NCBI GenBank assembly: GCA_040256005.1
Contig: JBDZWC010000013.1
Coordinates: forward strand, 1-27,601
DNA: 27,601 bases
Direction: 5' to 3'
Source: Deinococcaceae bacterium
GTDB taxonomy: Bacteria; Deinococcota; Deinococci; Deinococcales; Trueperaceae
Below the pieces are notes generated by a model. It did no database searches and was not told where the DNA came from. It saw only the letters and a list, made by a program, of their open reading frames with translations. Below, in pieces: positions 20,123 to 27,601 of this stretch. The first letter of the stretch is position 1, and every line of letters begins with the position of its first letter. Position numbers and translations under genes: made by a program.

Positions 20123-22096
20123 ATGGAGATGAGAGACCGGCTACGCAGCATCGCGCCGTTGATCGCCTGGGCTGGCTACGTCCTCGGGCATCCGTACCTC
20201 GAGATGACGCTCGGCCAGTACGCGGGCATGGTGGCGTTGCTGCCGGTCGCAGCGAGCGCCTGGGTGTGGGGCATCGCCGGCGGCGCGATCATGGGACTGG
20301 TCGGCTTCGCCGGGGTGCGGTTCCTGCAGTCGGACCTGACCTTCTACCAGTGGCTGGTCACCTACACCTTCCACGGCTCTCAGACCTACGAGCTACTCGC
20401 CTTCGTGGGCACCGGCGTCTGCATGGCGTTCATCAGGCGCTTCCGCGACGCGATCGCGCAGGAGCGCCTGGCTGCCCGGCGGGCGCAGGTCGACCCGCTC
20501 ACGGGCGCGCTCACGCGCGGCGCCTTCGAGGAGCGGCTGACCACCGCGATCGAGAAGGTGACGGCCTTGCCCGACGACGGGCTCGCGCTGCTGTTCGTCG
20601 ACCTCGACCGCTTCAAGTTCGTCAACGACACCTACGGTCACGAGACCGGCGACAAGCTCCTGCGCGAGGTAGGACGGATCCTGCGCGACAGCGTGCGCGG
20701 GTTGGACCTGGTGGGCCGTGTCGGCGGTGACGAGTTCACCGTTGCCCTCCTCGGCGTGAAGGAGGAGAAGGCGGCCGCCTCGGTCGCTCGCAGCCTCGTG
20801 CGGGAGCTCAACGCGCCCATCCGCATAGACGGACGCGACCTGCAGGTGTCGGCGTCCATCGGCATCGCCATGGCGCCGCGCGACGGCCAGTCCCCCGAGA
20901 CGCTGCTCAAGAGCGCGGACGCCGCGATGTACGAGGTCAAGGAGGGCGGTAAGAACTCCTACTACTTCTCCACCGTCGAGGTCCGCACGCGCCTGAGTCG
21001 TCGCCTGGAGCTGGAACGCCAGCTCCGGCAGGCGTTGCACGACAACGAGTTCGAGGTCGTCTACCAGCCGCAGGTGCGTCTATCGGACAACAGTTTGATT
21101 GGGTTCGAGGCCCTACTGAGGTGGCACAGCAGCGAGCTCGGCATCGTGTCGCCCGGCGAGTTCATCCCGGTCGCCGAGGAAGCGGGCCTGATAACCCCCA
21201 TAGGCCACTGGCTGGTGCGCGACGTCGCCATGCAGCTGCGCGACTGGCTGAAGGCGGGCTACGACCCCGTGAAGCTGGCCCTCAACGTCTCCACGATGCA
21301 GTTCCACCAGAAGTCGTTCATCGACACCGTCAAGGGCGCGCTCAACGACTCCGGCATCCCGCCCGAGCTGCTGGAGATCGAGGTCACGGAGAGCGTCCTC
21401 GTACGCGACTACGACCTGGCGCTGCGCACCCTGCTGCGGCTGGAGCGGCTGGGGGTCCCCACGGCGCTCGACGACTTCGGCACCGGCTACTCGTCTCTCG
21501 CCTACCTGCAAAGGCTCCCCATCAAGACGCTCAAGATCGACCGCTCGTTCGTGCAGGGCCTGGCGCCCCAGGTCGTCGATCAGGCCGTCAACGTCACGAA
21601 CCCCAAGCGGGCCCTGAGCACCGACGCCGGCCTGAGGCGCCACACCGGCATGCACGCCGGCGCCTGGACCGAGATCGCCGCGAACCTCTACGACGGGGGC
21701 AACGTCCCGGCCAGCACCTTCCCGATCGTCGAGGCCATCTGCGCGATGGCCCACAAGTTGGGCAAGCACGTGGTGGCCGAGGGCATCGAGACGGCCTACC
21801 AGCGCGACTTCCTGCGCCGTCTGGGCGTCGACTACGCGCAGGGCTACTTCTTCGCCCGGCCCATGCCGGCCTCGGAGGCCGAGAAGGTGCTGCGTCGCAT
21901 CACCGAGGACGCGGCGCGCGAGCGCAAGCTGCGCGAGCGCAACTCAGCTCGCCCGCCGGAGCAGCCCGCCGCCCAGCAGCTACACCTCGATACGGACGTT
22001 CTGCCCCAGCTCGAGCCCTCGCCGGAGCCCGCCGCCTACACGGGCTTCGACGACCTCATGCTGCTGGGCGACGAGACCAACCACACGCTCAACTAG
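20123..22096 (+). CDS. Membrane-anchored GGDEF-EAL c-di-GMP cyclase/phosphodiesterase
   Basis: N-terminal TM region, DPLTG, DLDRFKFVNDTYGH, RGLD I-site plus GGDEF, then YQPQ, EAL, EVTES, DDFGTGYSS, KIDRSF, AEGIE, QGYFF. Confidence 0.94.
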   Translation: MEMRDRLRSIAPLIAWAGYVLGHPYLEMTLGQYAGMVALLPVAASAWVWGIAGGAIMGLVGFAGVRFLQSDLTFYQWLVTYTFHGSQTYELLAFVGTGVCMAFIRRFRDAIAQERLAARRAQVDPLTGALTRGAFEERLTTAIEKVTALPDDGLALLFVDLDRFKFVNDTYGHETGDKLLREVGRILRDSVRGLDLVGRVGGDEFTVALLGVKEEKAAASVARSLVRELNAPIRIDGRDLQVSASIGIAMAPRDGQSPETLLKSADAAMYEVKEGGKNSYYFSTVEVRTRLSRRLELERQLRQALHDNEFEVVYQPQVRLSDNSLIGFEALLRWHSSELGIVSPGEFIPVAEEAGLITPIGHWLVRDVAMQLRDWLKAGYDPVKLALNVSTMQFHQKSFIDTVKGALNDSGIPPELLEIEVTESVLVRDYDLALRTLLRLERLGVPTALDDFGTGYSSLAYLQRLPIKTLKIDRSFVQGLAPQVVDQAVNVTNPKRALSTDAGLRRHTGMHAGAWTEIAANLYDGGNVPASTFPIVEAICAMAHKLGKHVVAEGIETAYQRDFLRRLGVDYAQGYFFARPMPASEAEKVLRRITEDAARERKLRERNSARPPEQPAAQQLHLDTDVLPQLEPSPEPAAYTGFDDLMLLGDETNHTLN

Positions 22097-22149: not shown

Positions 22150-24174
22150 TCACTGCCTGGGCGGAGCGGCCGGACCCATTGTTCGGCTGAGCATGGCGGC
22201 GGCGACCTGTTCGCTGAGGGTCGGTCCCCACTTGGCGTCCTCGTTGATCGCCACCGAGTAGAGGGTCTGGCCCGTGAGCTGGTGGTTCGGTCCGAAGGCG
22301 AGGGTGCCTTTGGCGGTCCGAAGCGGCGTCCCGCTCGCGAAGACGTCGGCCAGGGCCCGTGGTGCGTCGGTCCTCGCCTTCTCCGCCGCCCGCCGGACCA
22401 ACATCAGGGCCTCGTACGTGGTCCAGGCGGTCGGGTCCGCTGGCTGACCGAACCGTGAGGTGAACCGCCTGTTGAAGTCGCCGGCGCGGCCGTCGGACAG
22501 CGTCGTCTCCCAGGCCAGCACCCGCGGTGCATCGAAGGCGACGCCGTACTCTGCGCTGGCGGCGAGGAAGTTCCGGGTCTGGGCCGCATCGAAGGGGTAG
22601 GGGCTGAGGAAGGCCTGGCCACCGCGGTCCCGGTAGCCGCCCATGAACACGAGCTGCTCGGTGGGCGGCAGGAGCACCATGACCGCGTTGGCACCCGACT
22701 CGGCCAGCCGCCGGAAGGCGCCCTCGAAAGTGGGGTCTCCGCTGGCGACGGCCATGCCGTCGACGACCCTCTCCCCGAGGTCGAACAGGGTGTTGACGGC
22801 GGCGCGCCCCAGCTCCTCGCCGGCAGGCTCGTCGAGGTGCACCACGAACCAGTCCAGAGGCTGGTCGCCGGCCCGTTCCCGGACGGCGCGGGTCATGGCC
22901 GTCACGTACGCCTCGGGCGACGGCGCCACGTGGAAGACGTTCCAGCGCGCCTCGCCTCGCGCCGCCGCGGGATCGCTGGAGCCGACGTCCAGGAACAGCA
23001 CGCCGTGCTGCGTGGCCACCTCCGCCAGGGCGTCGGACTGGCCCTTCCCGACGCCGCCGACCAGTACGTCCACGCCGTCCGCCAGGACCAGGCGCTCAGC
23101 AGCGCGCCTGGCGGCCTCCGGGCTGGGCGAGGTCGCGTAGTGGAAGACGAGCGCGACGTCCGTAGACGCTTCCTGGGAATCGATCAGGCCCTCCGCGATC
23201 TGGGCACCACGCAGCGCGGCGATGCCGGTGAGGTCGTTGATCGCCGCGAAGTACGTCCTGCCGCCCGTGGGCACCGGCAGCACGATGCCGACGTCCACGA
23301 CGGTGCCGACCTGAGGCCGGATCACGTCACCCGCGAACGGTTTCGGGGCTTCCAGGACCGGCACGGAGTACTCCGCCAGGATCGCCTGGACCTCGTCCCA
23401 ACGCGCGACCAGAGCCCGGTTCAGGAGAGCCTGGAGGGAGCTGTCCTCGCGCCTTACCGCCATGGTCATGGGCTGGACCTGGAAGGTGCTGGGCGGCTCG
23501 AACTGCGGCTCGATGGGCTTCACGACCAGGTCGGCTGAGGCCCTGTCCGCCCAATAGGCGGTACCTGGTCCCCACCCGAACCCGACGTCGATGTCGCCGG
23601 CGGCCACGGCCTTCACGAGCACGCTCAGGCGGTCATCGGAGCCGGCCGTGCCGCCGTAGAGACGAGTGATGTTGGCCAGCAGTCCGCGGCTCGAGAGCGC
23701 GACGTGCGGCGGGGTGCCGGCACCGTGGATGCCGAGCCTGAGCGAGCGGAGCTTGGGATCGTCGAGCGAGTCGATAGCGAGGCCGGAGTCGGCCCTGTAC
23801 ACCATCACGTAGGGGCTCGTGTAGTAGCTCAGGGTGTTGAGGCCCTTCTCGAACCCGTCCGGTATGCCCAGGATGACGTCGCAGAGGCCCTCGGCGAAGT
23901 GGAGGTTGACGAGGTCCTCGGTGAAGTTCACCCATTCGTAGGTGACCCTGGCCCCCATCTCCTCGGCGAGCGTTTCTATGATCCGGTTCTCGTAGCCGGC
24001 TTGGTCGGTGTCGGAGAACGGCAGGGACTGGGGTGGGGCGCAGGCTCGCAGCTCCCACTGCTCCGTCGCGGGCTGCGCCGTCGCGACGGTGAGGGTCAGG
24101 GCCAGCGCCGACAGCGCTGCGGATAGGAGGGTCGCCGGGCGGCCCCGCTGCGGTTCACTGCTTGGGACGTGCAT
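22150..24174 (-). CDS. MxaJ/XoxJ-like periplasmic binding domain fused to a type-I (LivK/LutA-like) binding domain
   Basis: Signal peptide ending ATAQ. LRAC..LPFS..GYENRI, CDVILG, WGP, VRRED, ILAEYSVP give the MxaJ/XoxJ pattern. A further domain of roughly 370 aa has VGIVLP, AAERLV..GVDVLVGG, FNRRF. Start ATG 24174 with GGAG RBS. Confidence 0.8.
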   Translation of the reverse strand: MHVPSSEPQRGRPATLLSAALSALALTLTVATAQPATEQWELRACAPPQSLPFSDTDQAGYENRIIETLAEEMGARVTYEWVNFTEDLVNLHFAEGLCDVILGIPDGFEKGLNTLSYYTSPYVMVYRADSGLAIDSLDDPKLRSLRLGIHGAGTPPHVALSSRGLLANITRLYGGTAGSDDRLSVLVKAVAAGDIDVGFGWGPGTAYWADRASADLVVKPIEPQFEPPSTFQVQPMTMAVRREDSSLQALLNRALVARWDEVQAILAEYSVPVLEAPKPFAGDVIRPQVGTVVDVGIVLPVPTGGRTYFAAINDLTGIAALRGAQIAEGLIDSQEASTDVALVFHYATSPSPEAARRAAERLVLADGVDVLVGGVGKGQSDALAEVATQHGVLFLDVGSSDPAAARGEARWNVFHVAPSPEAYVTAMTRAVRERAGDQPLDWFVVHLDEPAGEELGRAAVNTLFDLGERVVDGMAVASGDPTFEGAFRRLAESGANAVMVLLPPTEQLVFMGGYRDRGGQAFLSPYPFDAAQTRNFLAASAEYGVAFDAPRVLAWETTLSDGRAGDFNRRFTSRFGQPADPTAWTTYEALMLVRRAAEKARTDAPRALADVFASGTPLRTAKGTLAFGPNHQLTGQTLYSVAINEDAKWGPTLSEQVAAAMLSRTMGPAAPPRQ

Positions 24175-24209
24175 CGTTGCTCCAGTCGATAGAGAGCTAC
24201 ACAAGATTT

Positions 24210-24241
24210 CGTGCGGAGGGCTGGTGACAGCCCTCCGCACG
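24210..24241. terminator. Strong intercistronic hairpin after the PQQ dehydrogenase gene
   Basis: Perfect 14-bp stem CGTGCGGAGGGCTG-GTGA-CAGCCCTCCGCACG. No U-tract on the coding (minus) strand. Confidence 0.65.
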
Positions 24242-24278
24242 TTTGAGGGCCCTTTGGCCCGGGGTTCGGGTCCCGAGC

Positions 24279-26072
24279 TCAGGGGAGCCCGAAGACGTAC
24301 AGCGTGGTCCCGGCGCGCCGGTAGCGGCCGGCGTTGTCTGCGGCCGTGTCCTGACCGACCTGTGGGTCGCTCGGGGCCTTCGAGGTGACGACCGCGATGT
24401 ACTGGCGGCCATCGGGCCCGTTGAAGGCGATGGGCGAACCGCGGAAGTCGCCGCCGGTGCGGAAGCTCCAGACGACCTCGCCGTTGCGGGCATCGACGGC
24501 GCGGAACAGGCCGGAGTCGGTGCCGCCGAAGATCAGGTTGCCGCCGGTGACCATGACCGGCTTGTTGTCAGAGCCGACGGCGGACTTCAGGCCCCAGACC
24601 TTCTCGTTCTTGACGGGGTCCCAAGCCTGCAGCTCGCCGGACCAGCCGCCCGGGCCGGTGTGCGTGTCCGTGAACCTCATCAGGACGTAGCTCTCGCCGG
24701 GGGTGTACTCGCCTTCCTGGCCAGTGAACGTGGCGCAGCGGTTCTCGGCCTGGAAGTAGAGCAGGCCGGTCACCGGCGAGAAGGCGTCGTTGTACCAGTT
24801 GTTGCCGGCGATGAACGGGCACACGGCTTCCGGGGTCGGCGTGTCGGTGTAGACGACCGTGTCCGGGTTGAAATCGACGAGGCCGGTCTCGGGGTCCACG
24901 CCGTTGTTCCAGGTGACCGTCGTGTACGGCTTCGGATCGTTGAGGATCTCGCCGGTGAGGCGATCGAACACGTAGAACATGCCGTTGCGGGCGGCCTTGA
25001 CGATGACGTGGCGCAGCTCTCCGTCGATGACGATGTCAGCGAGGGGGTTCTGGCCGGGCTCGTCGAAGTCCCAGGCGTCCTGGGGCGTGGTCTGGTAGGC
25101 CCAGACCATCTCGCCGGTCGTGGCGTCACGCGCGATGATCGACGCGCAGTACTTGGTGGGGTACTCCTCGAAGCCCGGCGCCGTCGCGGGATCGCGGCGG
25201 TAGTCCGGGTTCCACGGCGCGCAGTTCGCGGTGCCGTAGTAGAAGAGGTTCGACATGGGGTCGTACGTGAAGTAGCCCCAGGCCGTGCCGCCACCCAGGC
25301 GCCAGGAGTCGCCGTACCAGGTGCTCACACCGGGGTCTTCGACCTGGTCGGCCGCGTAGAACGGGTTCCAGCGGTCGCCGATGCCCATCTCGTCGTTCGG
25401 GCCGGTGTTGTAGAACTTCCACTTCTGTTCGCCGGTGTTGAGGTCGAAGGCCGCGACCCAACCGCGGATCCCGCGCTCGCCACCTTCGTTGCCGATGATG
25501 ATGTTGTCACCGACGACGAGCGGGGCGTTGGTCGTGGTCTCGGTGATGCTCAGGTCGACGACTGAATCGTTGTGCCAGACCTCTTCGCCGGTGTCCGCGT
25601 CAAGAGCGAAGAGCTGGCCGTCGAGGGTGTTGAAGATGATCTTGCCCTCGGCATAGGTCAGGCCACGCGACTGAGCGCCGCAGCACGCCGTGGCCTGCTC
25701 GAGACCCGGCATCTCGGGCCGGAAGGACCACTTGAGGACGCCGGGGTTGACCAGGTCGATCGCGTAGACGGTGTTGGGCTTGGGCGTGAGGATGTACATC
25801 GTGTCGCCGACCACGATGGGCGGTGCCTCGAGCGAGTCGGTGACGCCCAGCTGGAACGTCCACTGCACCTGCAGGTTCCGCACGTTGTACGTGTTGATCC
25901 TGTCGAGGGGGCTGAAGTTCGTTCCCTGGTAGTTGACGTTGGCCATCGGGACCTGTCCCGGGTCCTGCTGGATCCGCAATAGGTCTTGGTTGGCCATGGC
26001 GGTGCCCAGCAGGGCGACTGTGACAGTGCCGAGCAAGACGTTGCGCCATGTGCGACGTGAGCGTGGTTGCAT
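24279..26072 (-). CDS. Periplasmic PQQ-dependent methanol/ethanol-family dehydrogenase, predicted lanthanide-dependent (XoxF/PedH-like)
   Basis: Signal peptide, FSPLDRIN..NV, E in SLEAPP, vicinal CC (ACCG..RG), GGERGIRG, GGGTAWG, GTAN.APWN, WDFD, RNG, Trp docking repeats, C-terminal GRQYIAV..LYVFGLP. Confidence 0.92.
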   Translation of the reverse strand: MQPRSRRTWRNVLLGTVTVALLGTAMANQDLLRIQQDPGQVPMANVNYQGTNFSPLDRINTYNVRNLQVQWTFQLGVTDSLEAPPIVVGDTMYILTPKPNTVYAIDLVNPGVLKWSFRPEMPGLEQATACCGAQSRGLTYAEGKIIFNTLDGQLFALDADTGEEVWHNDSVVDLSITETTTNAPLVVGDNIIIGNEGGERGIRGWVAAFDLNTGEQKWKFYNTGPNDEMGIGDRWNPFYAADQVEDPGVSTWYGDSWRLGGGTAWGYFTYDPMSNLFYYGTANCAPWNPDYRRDPATAPGFEEYPTKYCASIIARDATTGEMVWAYQTTPQDAWDFDEPGQNPLADIVIDGELRHVIVKAARNGMFYVFDRLTGEILNDPKPYTTVTWNNGVDPETGLVDFNPDTVVYTDTPTPEAVCPFIAGNNWYNDAFSPVTGLLYFQAENRCATFTGQEGEYTPGESYVLMRFTDTHTGPGGWSGELQAWDPVKNEKVWGLKSAVGSDNKPVMVTGGNLIFGGTDSGLFRAVDARNGEVVWSFRTGGDFRGSPIAFNGPDGRQYIAVVTSKAPSDPQVGQDTAADNAGRYRRAGTTLYVFGLP

Positions 26073-26157
26073 CGTGGTTCGATCCCTACCTTTCCGAATA
26101 GACGACCTGCAAATGCATGGCGGCTCGGACTAGTCGCCACTCCCGATCCCCCGGGAC

Positions 26158-26928
26158 TCAGCGCGCTGCGGCTACCTCCTCTGCGAGAACCGCGCCGAAC
26201 TCATTTCCCCAGGAGTTGCGGACGAAGGTGATGACCGCCGAGATCTGGTCGTCCGAGAGGACGTCCTTGAACGGCGGCATGCCGTGCTCGATGAACCCGT
26301 TCAGCACGCGCCCCACCACGTAGTCCTCGTCTGCGAGCGCGGTGTTGCCGGCGAAGCGAGGTCCGATCAGGCCCTGGCCCTCGGCGCCGTGACAGACGGC
26401 GCAGTTGGAAGAGAAGACTTGATGCCCCGCCTCCATGACCGCCGCCATCTGCTCCTCGGGAAGAGTGACGACGTCAGCCGCCACCTCTTCGGTGATCGCT
26501 TGACCGGCGGGTGAGACCAGGTAGAACTGGTCCCCGAGGCGCTGGCCCCTAGTTTGGCCGGCCTCCGCGTCGCGCCTGAAGGTGTAGAGCGGGTGGCCGC
26601 CGTAGGTGACCTGAACGGTGCCGTCCGGACGCTCGACCGTGCCTACGAGCGCGGCGTCGAGCCTGTCCCCGACGCTGGGTTCGCTGCCGGCGTCCACGGT
26701 CAAGGGTGGCCAGTTGTTGGTGCAAGCGTCGACGCATGCGCTGGCGCCCTCTTCGTCGAGGACGTAGAGGTAGAGGCTGTTGCCGTTGGCGTCGACGAGA
26801 TGGTCGCCCCACCTCTCGTCATGGGCGAGGCCGAGCGTCGCGGCCGCGGCTTGGGCTAGGACGTACCCCGCCACCAGTGCTGTGAGGGCGGCCGCGAGGG
26901 CGAGGGTTCGAGACGATGCGGTCTTCAA
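26158..26928 (-). CDS. Secreted COG4315 (Lipoprotein_15 repeat) domain fused to class I cytochrome c
   Basis: Signal peptide, LVDANGNSLY..D..SACVDAC..NWPP..RPDG..QVTYGGHPLY.F..D, then CAVCH, GP, GMPPF (axial Met), FVRNSWGN. TTG start with GGAG RBS. Confidence 0.86.
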   Translation of the reverse strand: MKTASSRTLALAAALTALVAGYVLAQAAAATLGLAHDERWGDHLVDANGNSLYLYVLDEEGASACVDACTNNWPPLTVDAGSEPSVGDRLDAALVGTVERPDGTVQVTYGGHPLYTFRRDAEAGQTRGQRLGDQFYLVSPAGQAITEEVAADVVTLPEEQMAAVMEAGHQVFSSNCAVCHGAEGQGLIGPRFAGNTALADEDYVVGRVLNGFIEHGMPPFKDVLSDDQISAVITFVRNSWGNEFGAVLAEEVAAAR

Positions 26929-27019: not shown

Positions 27020-27542
27020 ATCTCGGCGGCTGTCGTGCTTGACGGGTTCCTCCGATCGTGCCGATCGCGGAGCCCGGAGCAGCGACGGCCGAATCGTATA
27101 TCGGGACGTTTGTCCCAGGCAACCCGAAAAGGACCTAACTGACCTGGAGATGCGCAGCATATATCCGAGACCGCGTCCATGCGCGACATACGGGAGCCGT
27201 GGTCTTGTCGATCCGGCCCCGGATATGCCTCTTTGACAGGCATACCGAGGTGGGTCAGACGACCCAAGGGGCAGGCTGCCGGCGCTGGGAAATCGGACCT
27301 CGGCACGCTCGACACCTCGCTGGGAGGGCTACTGGGGTATGCCCAGCTCCCCACTACCCCGGCACGACGTGCTAATATCCTTCTTTGCGCGCTTCCCGGG
27401 GCAGGGCCCGCTGGGCCACGGCACACGCTAAGTCCCCCGCTGAGTGAGCGCCGAGATCGGGTCCGGGTGTGCCGGGCCTGGGGACCAAGCAGTCGCGCCG
27501 CCTCGGTGGAGGGCGGTCGCTTTCACGTGCAGAGGAGAACAG

Positions 27543-27601
27543 GTGGCGAAGACCAGCGAGACCAGGCTCGAAGAGGCCTCCGTAGCAGCGGCTGCCGCCG
27601 A
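27543..27601 (+). CDS. 5' end of a divergent gene, truncated by the window edge
   Basis: GAGGAG RBS, then GTG 27543 and an open frame (VAKTSETRLEEASVAAAAA..) to the edge. Confidence 0.5.
   Translation, partial: MAKTSETRLEEASVAAAAA

Follow-up and report, generated by a model that had tools for sequence, protein, structure and literature searches.

A putative lanthanide-dependent PQQ dehydrogenase cassette with two fused accessory proteins in Trueperaceae

We analysed a stretch of 27,601 nucleotides (the window) from a Deinococcaceae bacterium (GCA_040256005.1, contig JBDZWC010000013.1), in which positions 22150–26928 are filled by three open reading frames (ORFs) that run in the same direction on the minus strand, with intergenic gaps of 85 and 104 nt. 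The first (26158..26928, minus) has a TTG start immediately after GGAG and encodes a 256-residue protein with a signal peptide, two Lipoprotein_15 repeats and a class I cytochrome c, likely the electron acceptor of the dehydrogenase encoded next. This second gene (24279..26072, minus) specifies a 597-residue β-propeller dehydrogenase dependent on pyrroloquinoline quinone (PQQ), of a clade sister to XoxF/MxaF, and the third (22150..24174, minus; ATG at 24174, again just after GGAG) a 674-residue XoxJ–PedA1/LutA-like fusion, here called J. All three proteins open with a hydrophobic, signal-like N-terminus (judged by eye), in line with the original prediction of three co-oriented secreted proteins that include a PQQ dehydrogenase with WDFD. 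The absence of mxaI from the cassette was also borne out, as there is no space for it between the trio genes (this concerns the cassette only; a genome-wide mxaI search was not made). The G+C content at third codon positions is 0.84, 0.92 and 0.90 for the trio against a median of 0.89 for the genome's long ORFs rich in such G+C; together with synteny across the family, this rules out chance ORFs or a recent foreign insertion. The host, which had been suspected to be Deinococcota-like, belongs to Trueperaceae: of ten unrelated proteins looked up, seven had an entry in the collection, and five of these fall in 90% clusters named 'Trueperaceae bacterium', the other two in nameless clusters.

The dehydrogenase belongs to the PQQ methanol/ethanol family (487.9 bits with TIGR03075, whose cut-off is 480) and has a propeller fold with vicinal cysteines and no fused heme domain. 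The top fold match of its AlphaFold model (predicted local distance difference test score, pLDDT, 86) is XoxF2 of Methylacidiphilum fumariolicum SolV (4MAE/6FKW), with a template-modelling (TM) score of 0.87 at 37% identity; only the C-terminal tail is modelled poorly (pLDDT 43–66). The two enzymes share the fold, the vicinal Cys–Cys and the Glu/Asn/Asp/Asp set, with E199, N283, D335 and D337 aligned to the metal ligands of 4MAE. Within the WDFD motif (residues 334–337), Asp335-Phe-Asp337 (25062..25070, minus) aligns to Asp299/Asp301 of XoxF2, the second Asp being the lanthanide signature, and Cys130-Cys131 (25680..25685, minus) to the pair that forms the disulfide ring over PQQ in alcohol-oxidising quinoproteins. 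In an alignment of the query with the best 120 of 586 matches, D335, D337, N283, R362 and both cysteines are kept in 121/121 sequences and E199 in 118/121, and a Ca-type D-x-A/S/T variant occurs in none of the 121. The lanthanide-type motif of the original prediction is thereby upheld. PMC8546591 describes the roles of the residues in this motif, and D-x-D is the lanthanide criterion applied in PMC11996626. A Ca-dependent MxaFI was ruled out by DFD in place of D-x-A and by the lack of room for mxaI.

The pocket loops set the clade apart from all 10 reference rows: CCG replaces CCD, NC (Asn-Cys) replaces NP, the residues after D-x-D read DxD-EP rather than DxD/A/S-[GE]-[VIN]-N, and neither the W-S/G-G motif nor the GGW tail loop is retained, leaving the enzyme without the pocket motifs that XoxF proteins share (CCD, N-P, WSG, GGW tail). 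We take the GGW tail loop to be the carrier of the methanol-pocket Trp and Leu (Trp540/Leu556), for which we found no confirming paper. The clade also has an extra conserved cysteine pair, Cys284/Cys309, in which Cys309 is a second invariant cysteine beside that of Asn-Cys. The enzyme is 34–43% identical to XoxF/MxaF references, whereas XoxF/MxaF clades are 42–55% identical among themselves; 4MAE scores 404 bits with the window enzyme, compared with 561 and 540 bits for the XoxF1 and XoxF4 representatives.

Phylogeny agrees with this separation. IQ-TREE placed the enzyme in its own clade (support 100/99), together with enzymes of Trueperaceae, Calidithermus, Acidobacteria, Bauldia and Devosiaceae, as sister to the methanol dehydrogenases (96/94, Calidithermus rows included), the sister group in the trees being XoxF1/3/4/5 plus MxaF. 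These runs used 35 and 27 chosen rows and no mixture model, and a large FastTree of 111 rows, with 76 of the 92 best representatives retained for full coverage, likewise gave a separate clade. Annotated plasmids supplied reference rows, as did representatives assigned to XoxF1 and XoxF4; the XoxF3 label is based on cox linkage and the MxaF label on D-x-A. The approximately unbiased (AU) test rejects joining the enzyme to XoxF5 (p 0.00014) and XoxF1 (p 0.016), and XoxF4 and MxaF fall in a different group from it in IQ-TREE. The trees and pocket motifs together rule out XoxF1, XoxF4, XoxF5 and MxaF identity, and the XoxF-type assignment of the original prediction gives way to a separate clade. 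Membership of ExaF/PedH (type 2b) was likewise ruled out, by a distant branch and 28–35% identity. The clade may already sit among the numbered PQQ alcohol dehydrogenase types or the 'unclassified' sequences of earlier classifications.

In the cytochrome protein, the Lipoprotein_15 repeat domain at about residues 28–147 (26488..26847, minus) matches Pfam PF03640 (E 2.6e-22) and, in the Atlas, only PF03640 clusters (score 0.87); no lipobox cysteine was seen. The heme c attachment motif CAVCH is at residues 176–180 (26389..26403, minus), and C65/C69, CxxCH and M217 are invariant in 40/40 aligned sequences. The protein had been taken for an XoxG/MxaG-type cytochrome. Its TIGR03872 score is 32.7 bits against a cut-off of 147.8, lower than with cbb3/c6-type models, and its 41 PDB matches include no XoxG/MxaG chain, which rules out this identity. 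The place of XoxG in the cassette is taken by a class I cytochrome c from a different lineage. Elsewhere in the genome (G000:C51:8108-8812), Lipoprotein_15 also occurs on its own, in a protein that lacks a cytochrome and adjoins a sugar ATP-binding cassette (ABC) permease pair.

The N-terminal domain of J (residues 41–274; 23353..24054, minus) is homologous to MxaJ/XoxJ (6ONP, E 6.6e-32; 9ISM chain B, E 4.5e-25) and is likely a PQQ-loading chaperone; its TIGR03871 score, 196.7 bits, is below the cut-off of 212. J differs from these proteins by a roughly 390-residue PedA1/LutA-like C-domain with a LivJ fold at about residues 295–646 (22237..23292, minus), a relative of PedA1/LutA-like binding proteins (Peripla_BP_6, E 4.3e-29; TIGR03863, E 9e-10). 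The best non-fusion match of this domain in the source genome is a PedA1-like protein (E 5e-19), the next best having an E value of 0.07. The domain matches confirm both fusions that had been predicted. A near-length search found 49 proteins matching the XoxJ–PedA1/LutA-like fusion at E ≤ 1e-40, the sole taxon-named one being from Trueperaceae. A fused XoxG–XoxJ in M. fumariolicum is reportedly a precedent for such accessory fusions. PMC12276312 assigns MxaJ a chaperone role and treats the maturation of XoxF as an unresolved question.

We examined synteny at 80 of 205 relatives of the enzyme. The 20 best named loci comprise 13 titled Trueperaceae, Deinococcaceae or Deinococcota, six uncultured bacterium and one Bacillota. 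The cytochrome is directly upstream of the enzyme in 20/20 of these top loci, with Lipoprotein_15 in 19 and one cut by a contig end, and J is present in 17/17 with sequence available, 16 fused and one split; the trio is thus co-conserved, as the check proposed with the original prediction required. Among the other 60 loci, Lipoprotein_15 occurs in none and cytochrome c in six, and one of these loci, from Devosiaceae (L068), carries separate genes for cytochrome, enzyme, J and the LivJ-fold protein, without any fusion. The record titled Bacillota (L031) holds a complete trio with both fusions, at 70% identity and placed within the Trueperaceae; transfer or mis-binning would account for it. Several same-clade paralogues per genome, mostly without J or cytochrome neighbours, were seen in Bauldia (L071-L098; up to three at L093) and Vicinamibacterales (L044-L103).

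At E ≤ 1e-120 the enzyme matches 24/128 family genomes, one of the 24 through an XoxF-like enzyme outside the clade. PqqT-like and PedA1-like proteins are each found in 23 of these 24 genomes and pqqC in two, compared with 28 (PqqT-like) and 13 (PedA1-like) of the other 104. A pqqC-bearing genome of the same family (L008, G023:C46) has an XoxF-like enzyme with WDYDGVNE that scores 646 bits to 4MAE and lies inside the methanol dehydrogenase radiation, possibly a true methanol dehydrogenase in Trueperaceae. In a sample of the phylum, 24/301 genomes match: the source genome, 19/102 others of its family and 4/62 of another family, with 0/136 in three further families. Each of the latter four carries one island of PqqT-like ABC system, cytochrome fusion(s), enzyme and J, followed in 3/4 stretches by pedA2-, acidic- and pedB-like genes and in two by a pedC-like gene. 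The four island enzymes have identical counterparts recorded under Calidithermus timidus, C. roseus, C. chliarophilus and Meiothermus sp., and pqqC was found in 0/4 island genomes, a positive control being included. The J of C. timidus carries, as a fused domain, the binding protein of the transporter encoded next to it, and this binding domain is 50% identical to the PedA1-like protein of the source genome and 33% to the window domain; J is fused in C. roseus too, while the other two islands have J and pedA1 as adjacent, separate genes. The C-domain of the window protein therefore likely derives from such a J–pedA1 fusion, followed by divergence.

The source genome has four cassettes that share the two fusions and together encode five PQQ dehydrogenases: that of the window, one divergent from it on the far side of rpoD in that contig, and a further two on contig C29. 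The window cassette is one of four paralogous ones. Three of the five enzymes are in the clade, with mutual identities of 56–59%, and two are distant and without Cys-Cys. The second cassette (G000:C109:28834-33628, L021) lies just beyond the window on the plus strand in the order J fusion, cytochrome fusion, enzyme; rpoD, starting near window positions 27179–27601, separates the two. The two distant D-x-D enzymes without Cys-Cys flank a J fusion on C29 (G000:C29:17478-23253, L022) and have Asp/Gln at the Glu/Asn ligand positions, a putative further type.

The source genome gave no model match for pqqC and pqqE and no tblastn match for PqqB, PqqD or PqqE of relatives; pqqC was above cut-off in 5/128 family genomes, which served as a positive control, and in 0/12 genomes of the genus. 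The searches having yielded no pqqB, C, D or E, the host likely depends on imported PQQ, which speaks against the self-contained variant of the original prediction. The ABC system directly upstream of cassette 3 on C29 has a binding protein with a match to PqqT of Methylorubrum extorquens AM1 (9B1U, E 4.4e-22), 9B1U being described as PqqT in PMC11331073. The homologue retains the PQQ-contacting T41 and K142 (in our own alignment register) and has Ser for Asn143; the match spans only residues 38–214, and PQQ binding is predicted from sequence. PQQ scavenging is widespread according to PMC12124388. Directly upstream of cassette 4 are pedA1-, pedA2-, pedB- and pedC-like genes with an acidic helical gene between them. 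The product of the latter (G000:C29:38255-39358), an acidic secreted protein of 367 residues with no NCBIfam match, has the same position in 3/4 Thermaceae-type islands. In Pseudomonas putida PedA1A2BC is described as a lanthanide transporter, which PedH-dependent growth requires (PMC12997753).

For respiration, cytochrome c oxidase subunits I and II are above cut-offs and CcmC/CcmF-like genes are present. After the gene for a five-heme QrcA/ActA-like cytochrome comes a long ORF that runs off the contig (G000:C32:915-3371), an arrangement that looks like the beginning of an operon for alternative complex III. Methylcitrate synthase and 11 Aldedh matches were found, while Mch, Hps, FtfL, glutathione-dependent formaldehyde dehydrogenase, formate dehydrogenase, isocitrate lyase and RuBisCO gave nothing over cut-off in the source genome. 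The isocitrate lyase matches are fragments at two contig ends and were rejected; scanning identified the piece on C160 as methylisocitrate lyase, and that on C150 adjoins methylcitrate synthase.

Co-transcription of the trio is compatible with its layout. A coding-strand scan found no terminator-like site, and a promoter scan of both strands detected nothing. Contigs from RNA libraries (4/13 runs, two studies) span the cytochrome–enzyme gap, namely X8 (25794–26205, 3 differences) and X10 (25912–26210, 16 differences), and no piece bridges the enzyme–J gap among the matches listed, beyond which there are 446 further pieces. Such contigs cannot by themselves demonstrate a transcript, and the signal is compatible with DNA carry-over because near-identical pieces cover the flanking genes too. 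The 3′ end of the operon faces head-on a gene for a membrane-anchored GGDEF-EAL protein (window 20123–22096), a homologue of which is also in a trio-bearing Trueperaceae contig.

Compared with known systems, the cassette shares with those of XoxF1-5 the clustering of the enzyme with a cytochrome c and a XoxJ-like protein and the lack of mxaI in the cassette, but the enzyme forms a separate clade, the cytochrome is unlike XoxG, and neither pqq genes nor the searched one-carbon (C1) markers were found in the host. The xoxF3 clusters (Mesorhizobium, Bradyrhizobium and Methylocystis plasmids; Acidobacteria, PMC10875860) have the top reference identity to the enzyme, 43%, likewise combine enzyme, J and cytochrome, and are often in hosts without PQQ synthesis (16/38 make PQQ); unlike them, the window cassette is without adjacent cox/ctaG and has fused partners and different motifs. 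The best functional analogue is PedH/PedF/PedG with PedA1A2BC of P. putida KT2440, a non-methylotroph with a lanthanide alcohol dehydrogenase (ExaF-type), a cytochrome, a J-like protein and the same ABC system, from which the window system differs by the distant enzyme, the fusion of J to a PedA1-like domain and the pqq genes not found. By analogy, the cassette would resemble a PedH/XoxF module in its working, the enzyme not being an XoxF member.

We favour, at a probability of roughly 0.55, a periplasmic lanthanide-using PQQ dehydrogenase whose substrates are multi-carbon alcohols or aldehydes and which does not serve growth on methanol, with scavenged PQQ and electrons passed to cytochrome c oxidase. 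PQQ would be scavenged through the PqqT-like system beside cassette 3 and Ln3+ handled by the PedA1A2BC-like system beside cassette 4. Like MxaJ, the XoxJ domain may keep the apo-enzyme in an open state in which PQQ can be loaded, and the fused PedA1-like domain may help maturation, possibly via metal delivery. Electrons would pass from PQQ over the Cys-Cys ring to the cytochrome c of the fusion protein and from there to cytochrome c oxidase (encoded on C43) for respiratory energy. Aldehyde dehydrogenases would take up the products, as would the methylcitrate cycle where the substrate is C3. More tentatively, the clade could be the closest living sister of all methanol dehydrogenases with a non-C1 substrate, and the XoxJ–PedA1 fusion a one-protein loader in which the XoxJ half would give PQQ access to the apo-enzyme and the half derived from PedA1/LutA would supply the lanthanide; we consider this possible but less likely than not.

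Several points weigh against these assignments. Joining XoxF3 is disfavoured and not rejected by the AU test (p 0.053), support for the methanol dehydrogenase side is only 86/82 without the Calidithermus rows, one smaller FastTree left the base of the clade unresolved, and the trees contained no true XoxF2, which was compared by bit score and stand-ins. The metal and substrate assignment rests on motif and context because no clade member is among the solved structures or in the literature searched. The PedA1A2BC-like genes score below NCBIfam cut-offs (140/414, 224/287, 223/302 and 117/241). The genomes in which the genes co-occur are kin, so that the counts are not independent and no statistic is claimed. 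Gene absences are limited by a genome that is 96.8% complete in 250 contigs, and the C1 search covered seven C1/C2 markers, with Fae, serine-cycle and ethylmalonyl-CoA genes not searched.

With respect to substrate, a lanthanide enzyme preferring methanol or formaldehyde, for extra energy or detoxification without C1 assimilation, appears unlikely. The top structural and sequence matches are all methanol dehydrogenases, the clade is their sister, a XoxJ-type partner is present, and some homologues carry the automatic Joint Genome Institute label 'lanthanide-dependent methanol dehydrogenase'; yet the identity to XoxF/MxaF is lower than that between their clades, the GGW tail loop with its presumed methanol-pocket role is lost, no formaldehyde or formate disposal marker among those searched is over cut-off, and the three in-clade paralogues, at 56–59% identity, suggest substrate diversification. 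Basic residues at the entrance would fit polar or charged substrates such as polyols, sugar derivatives or hydroxy acids: position 200 is Arg in 95/121 sequences compared with Phe, Leu, Met or Tyr in the references, R583 and R586 are invariant across the alignment, and an ocean preprint reports many putative lanthanide sugar dehydrogenases. We regard this as improbable, as the vicinal Cys-Cys is kept, the enzyme groups with alcohol dehydrogenases far from the sorbose dehydrogenase row, the tail is the poorly modelled part, and position 200 is Tyr in two paralogues of the source genome. As for the metal, proteins with two Asp can be predicted Ca binders and motif-only calls may fail, according to a preprint (10.64898/2026.07.14.738520). 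A Ca2+ or mixed-metal enzyme merely retaining the second Asp is nevertheless very unlikely in our view, given a nearly invariant canonical set of two Asp, one Glu and one Asn and the co-occurrence of the PedA1A2BC-like transporter, directly adjacent in Calidithermus, whose counterpart P. putida needs for PedH-dependent growth.

Lanthanide-motif PQQ enzymes are already known outside Proteobacteria, in 14/33 phyla in ocean genomes, so a Deinococcota host alone is only mildly surprising. Among the matches listed, no title describes such a system in the literature on Trueperaceae, Deinococcota, Truepera or Meiothermus/Calidithermus, and the string 'Deinococc' is absent from the main text of the related papers searched for it, supplements and subscription papers being outside the scope. 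The enzyme represents a sister lineage of the methanol dehydrogenases, and its substrate and metal bear on the origin of methanol oxidation and of lanthanide use, while the XoxJ–PedA1 fusion ties PQQ loading to a putative lanthanide transporter. These questions are testable in the cultured hot-spring species C. timidus, C. roseus and C. chliarophilus, which have the whole kit in one island and no pqqC found, and the Calidithermus systems may yield heat-stable lanthanide proteins. If true, the one-protein loader would show how lanthanide enzymes get their metal, in thermophilic Deinococcota that import both cofactors.

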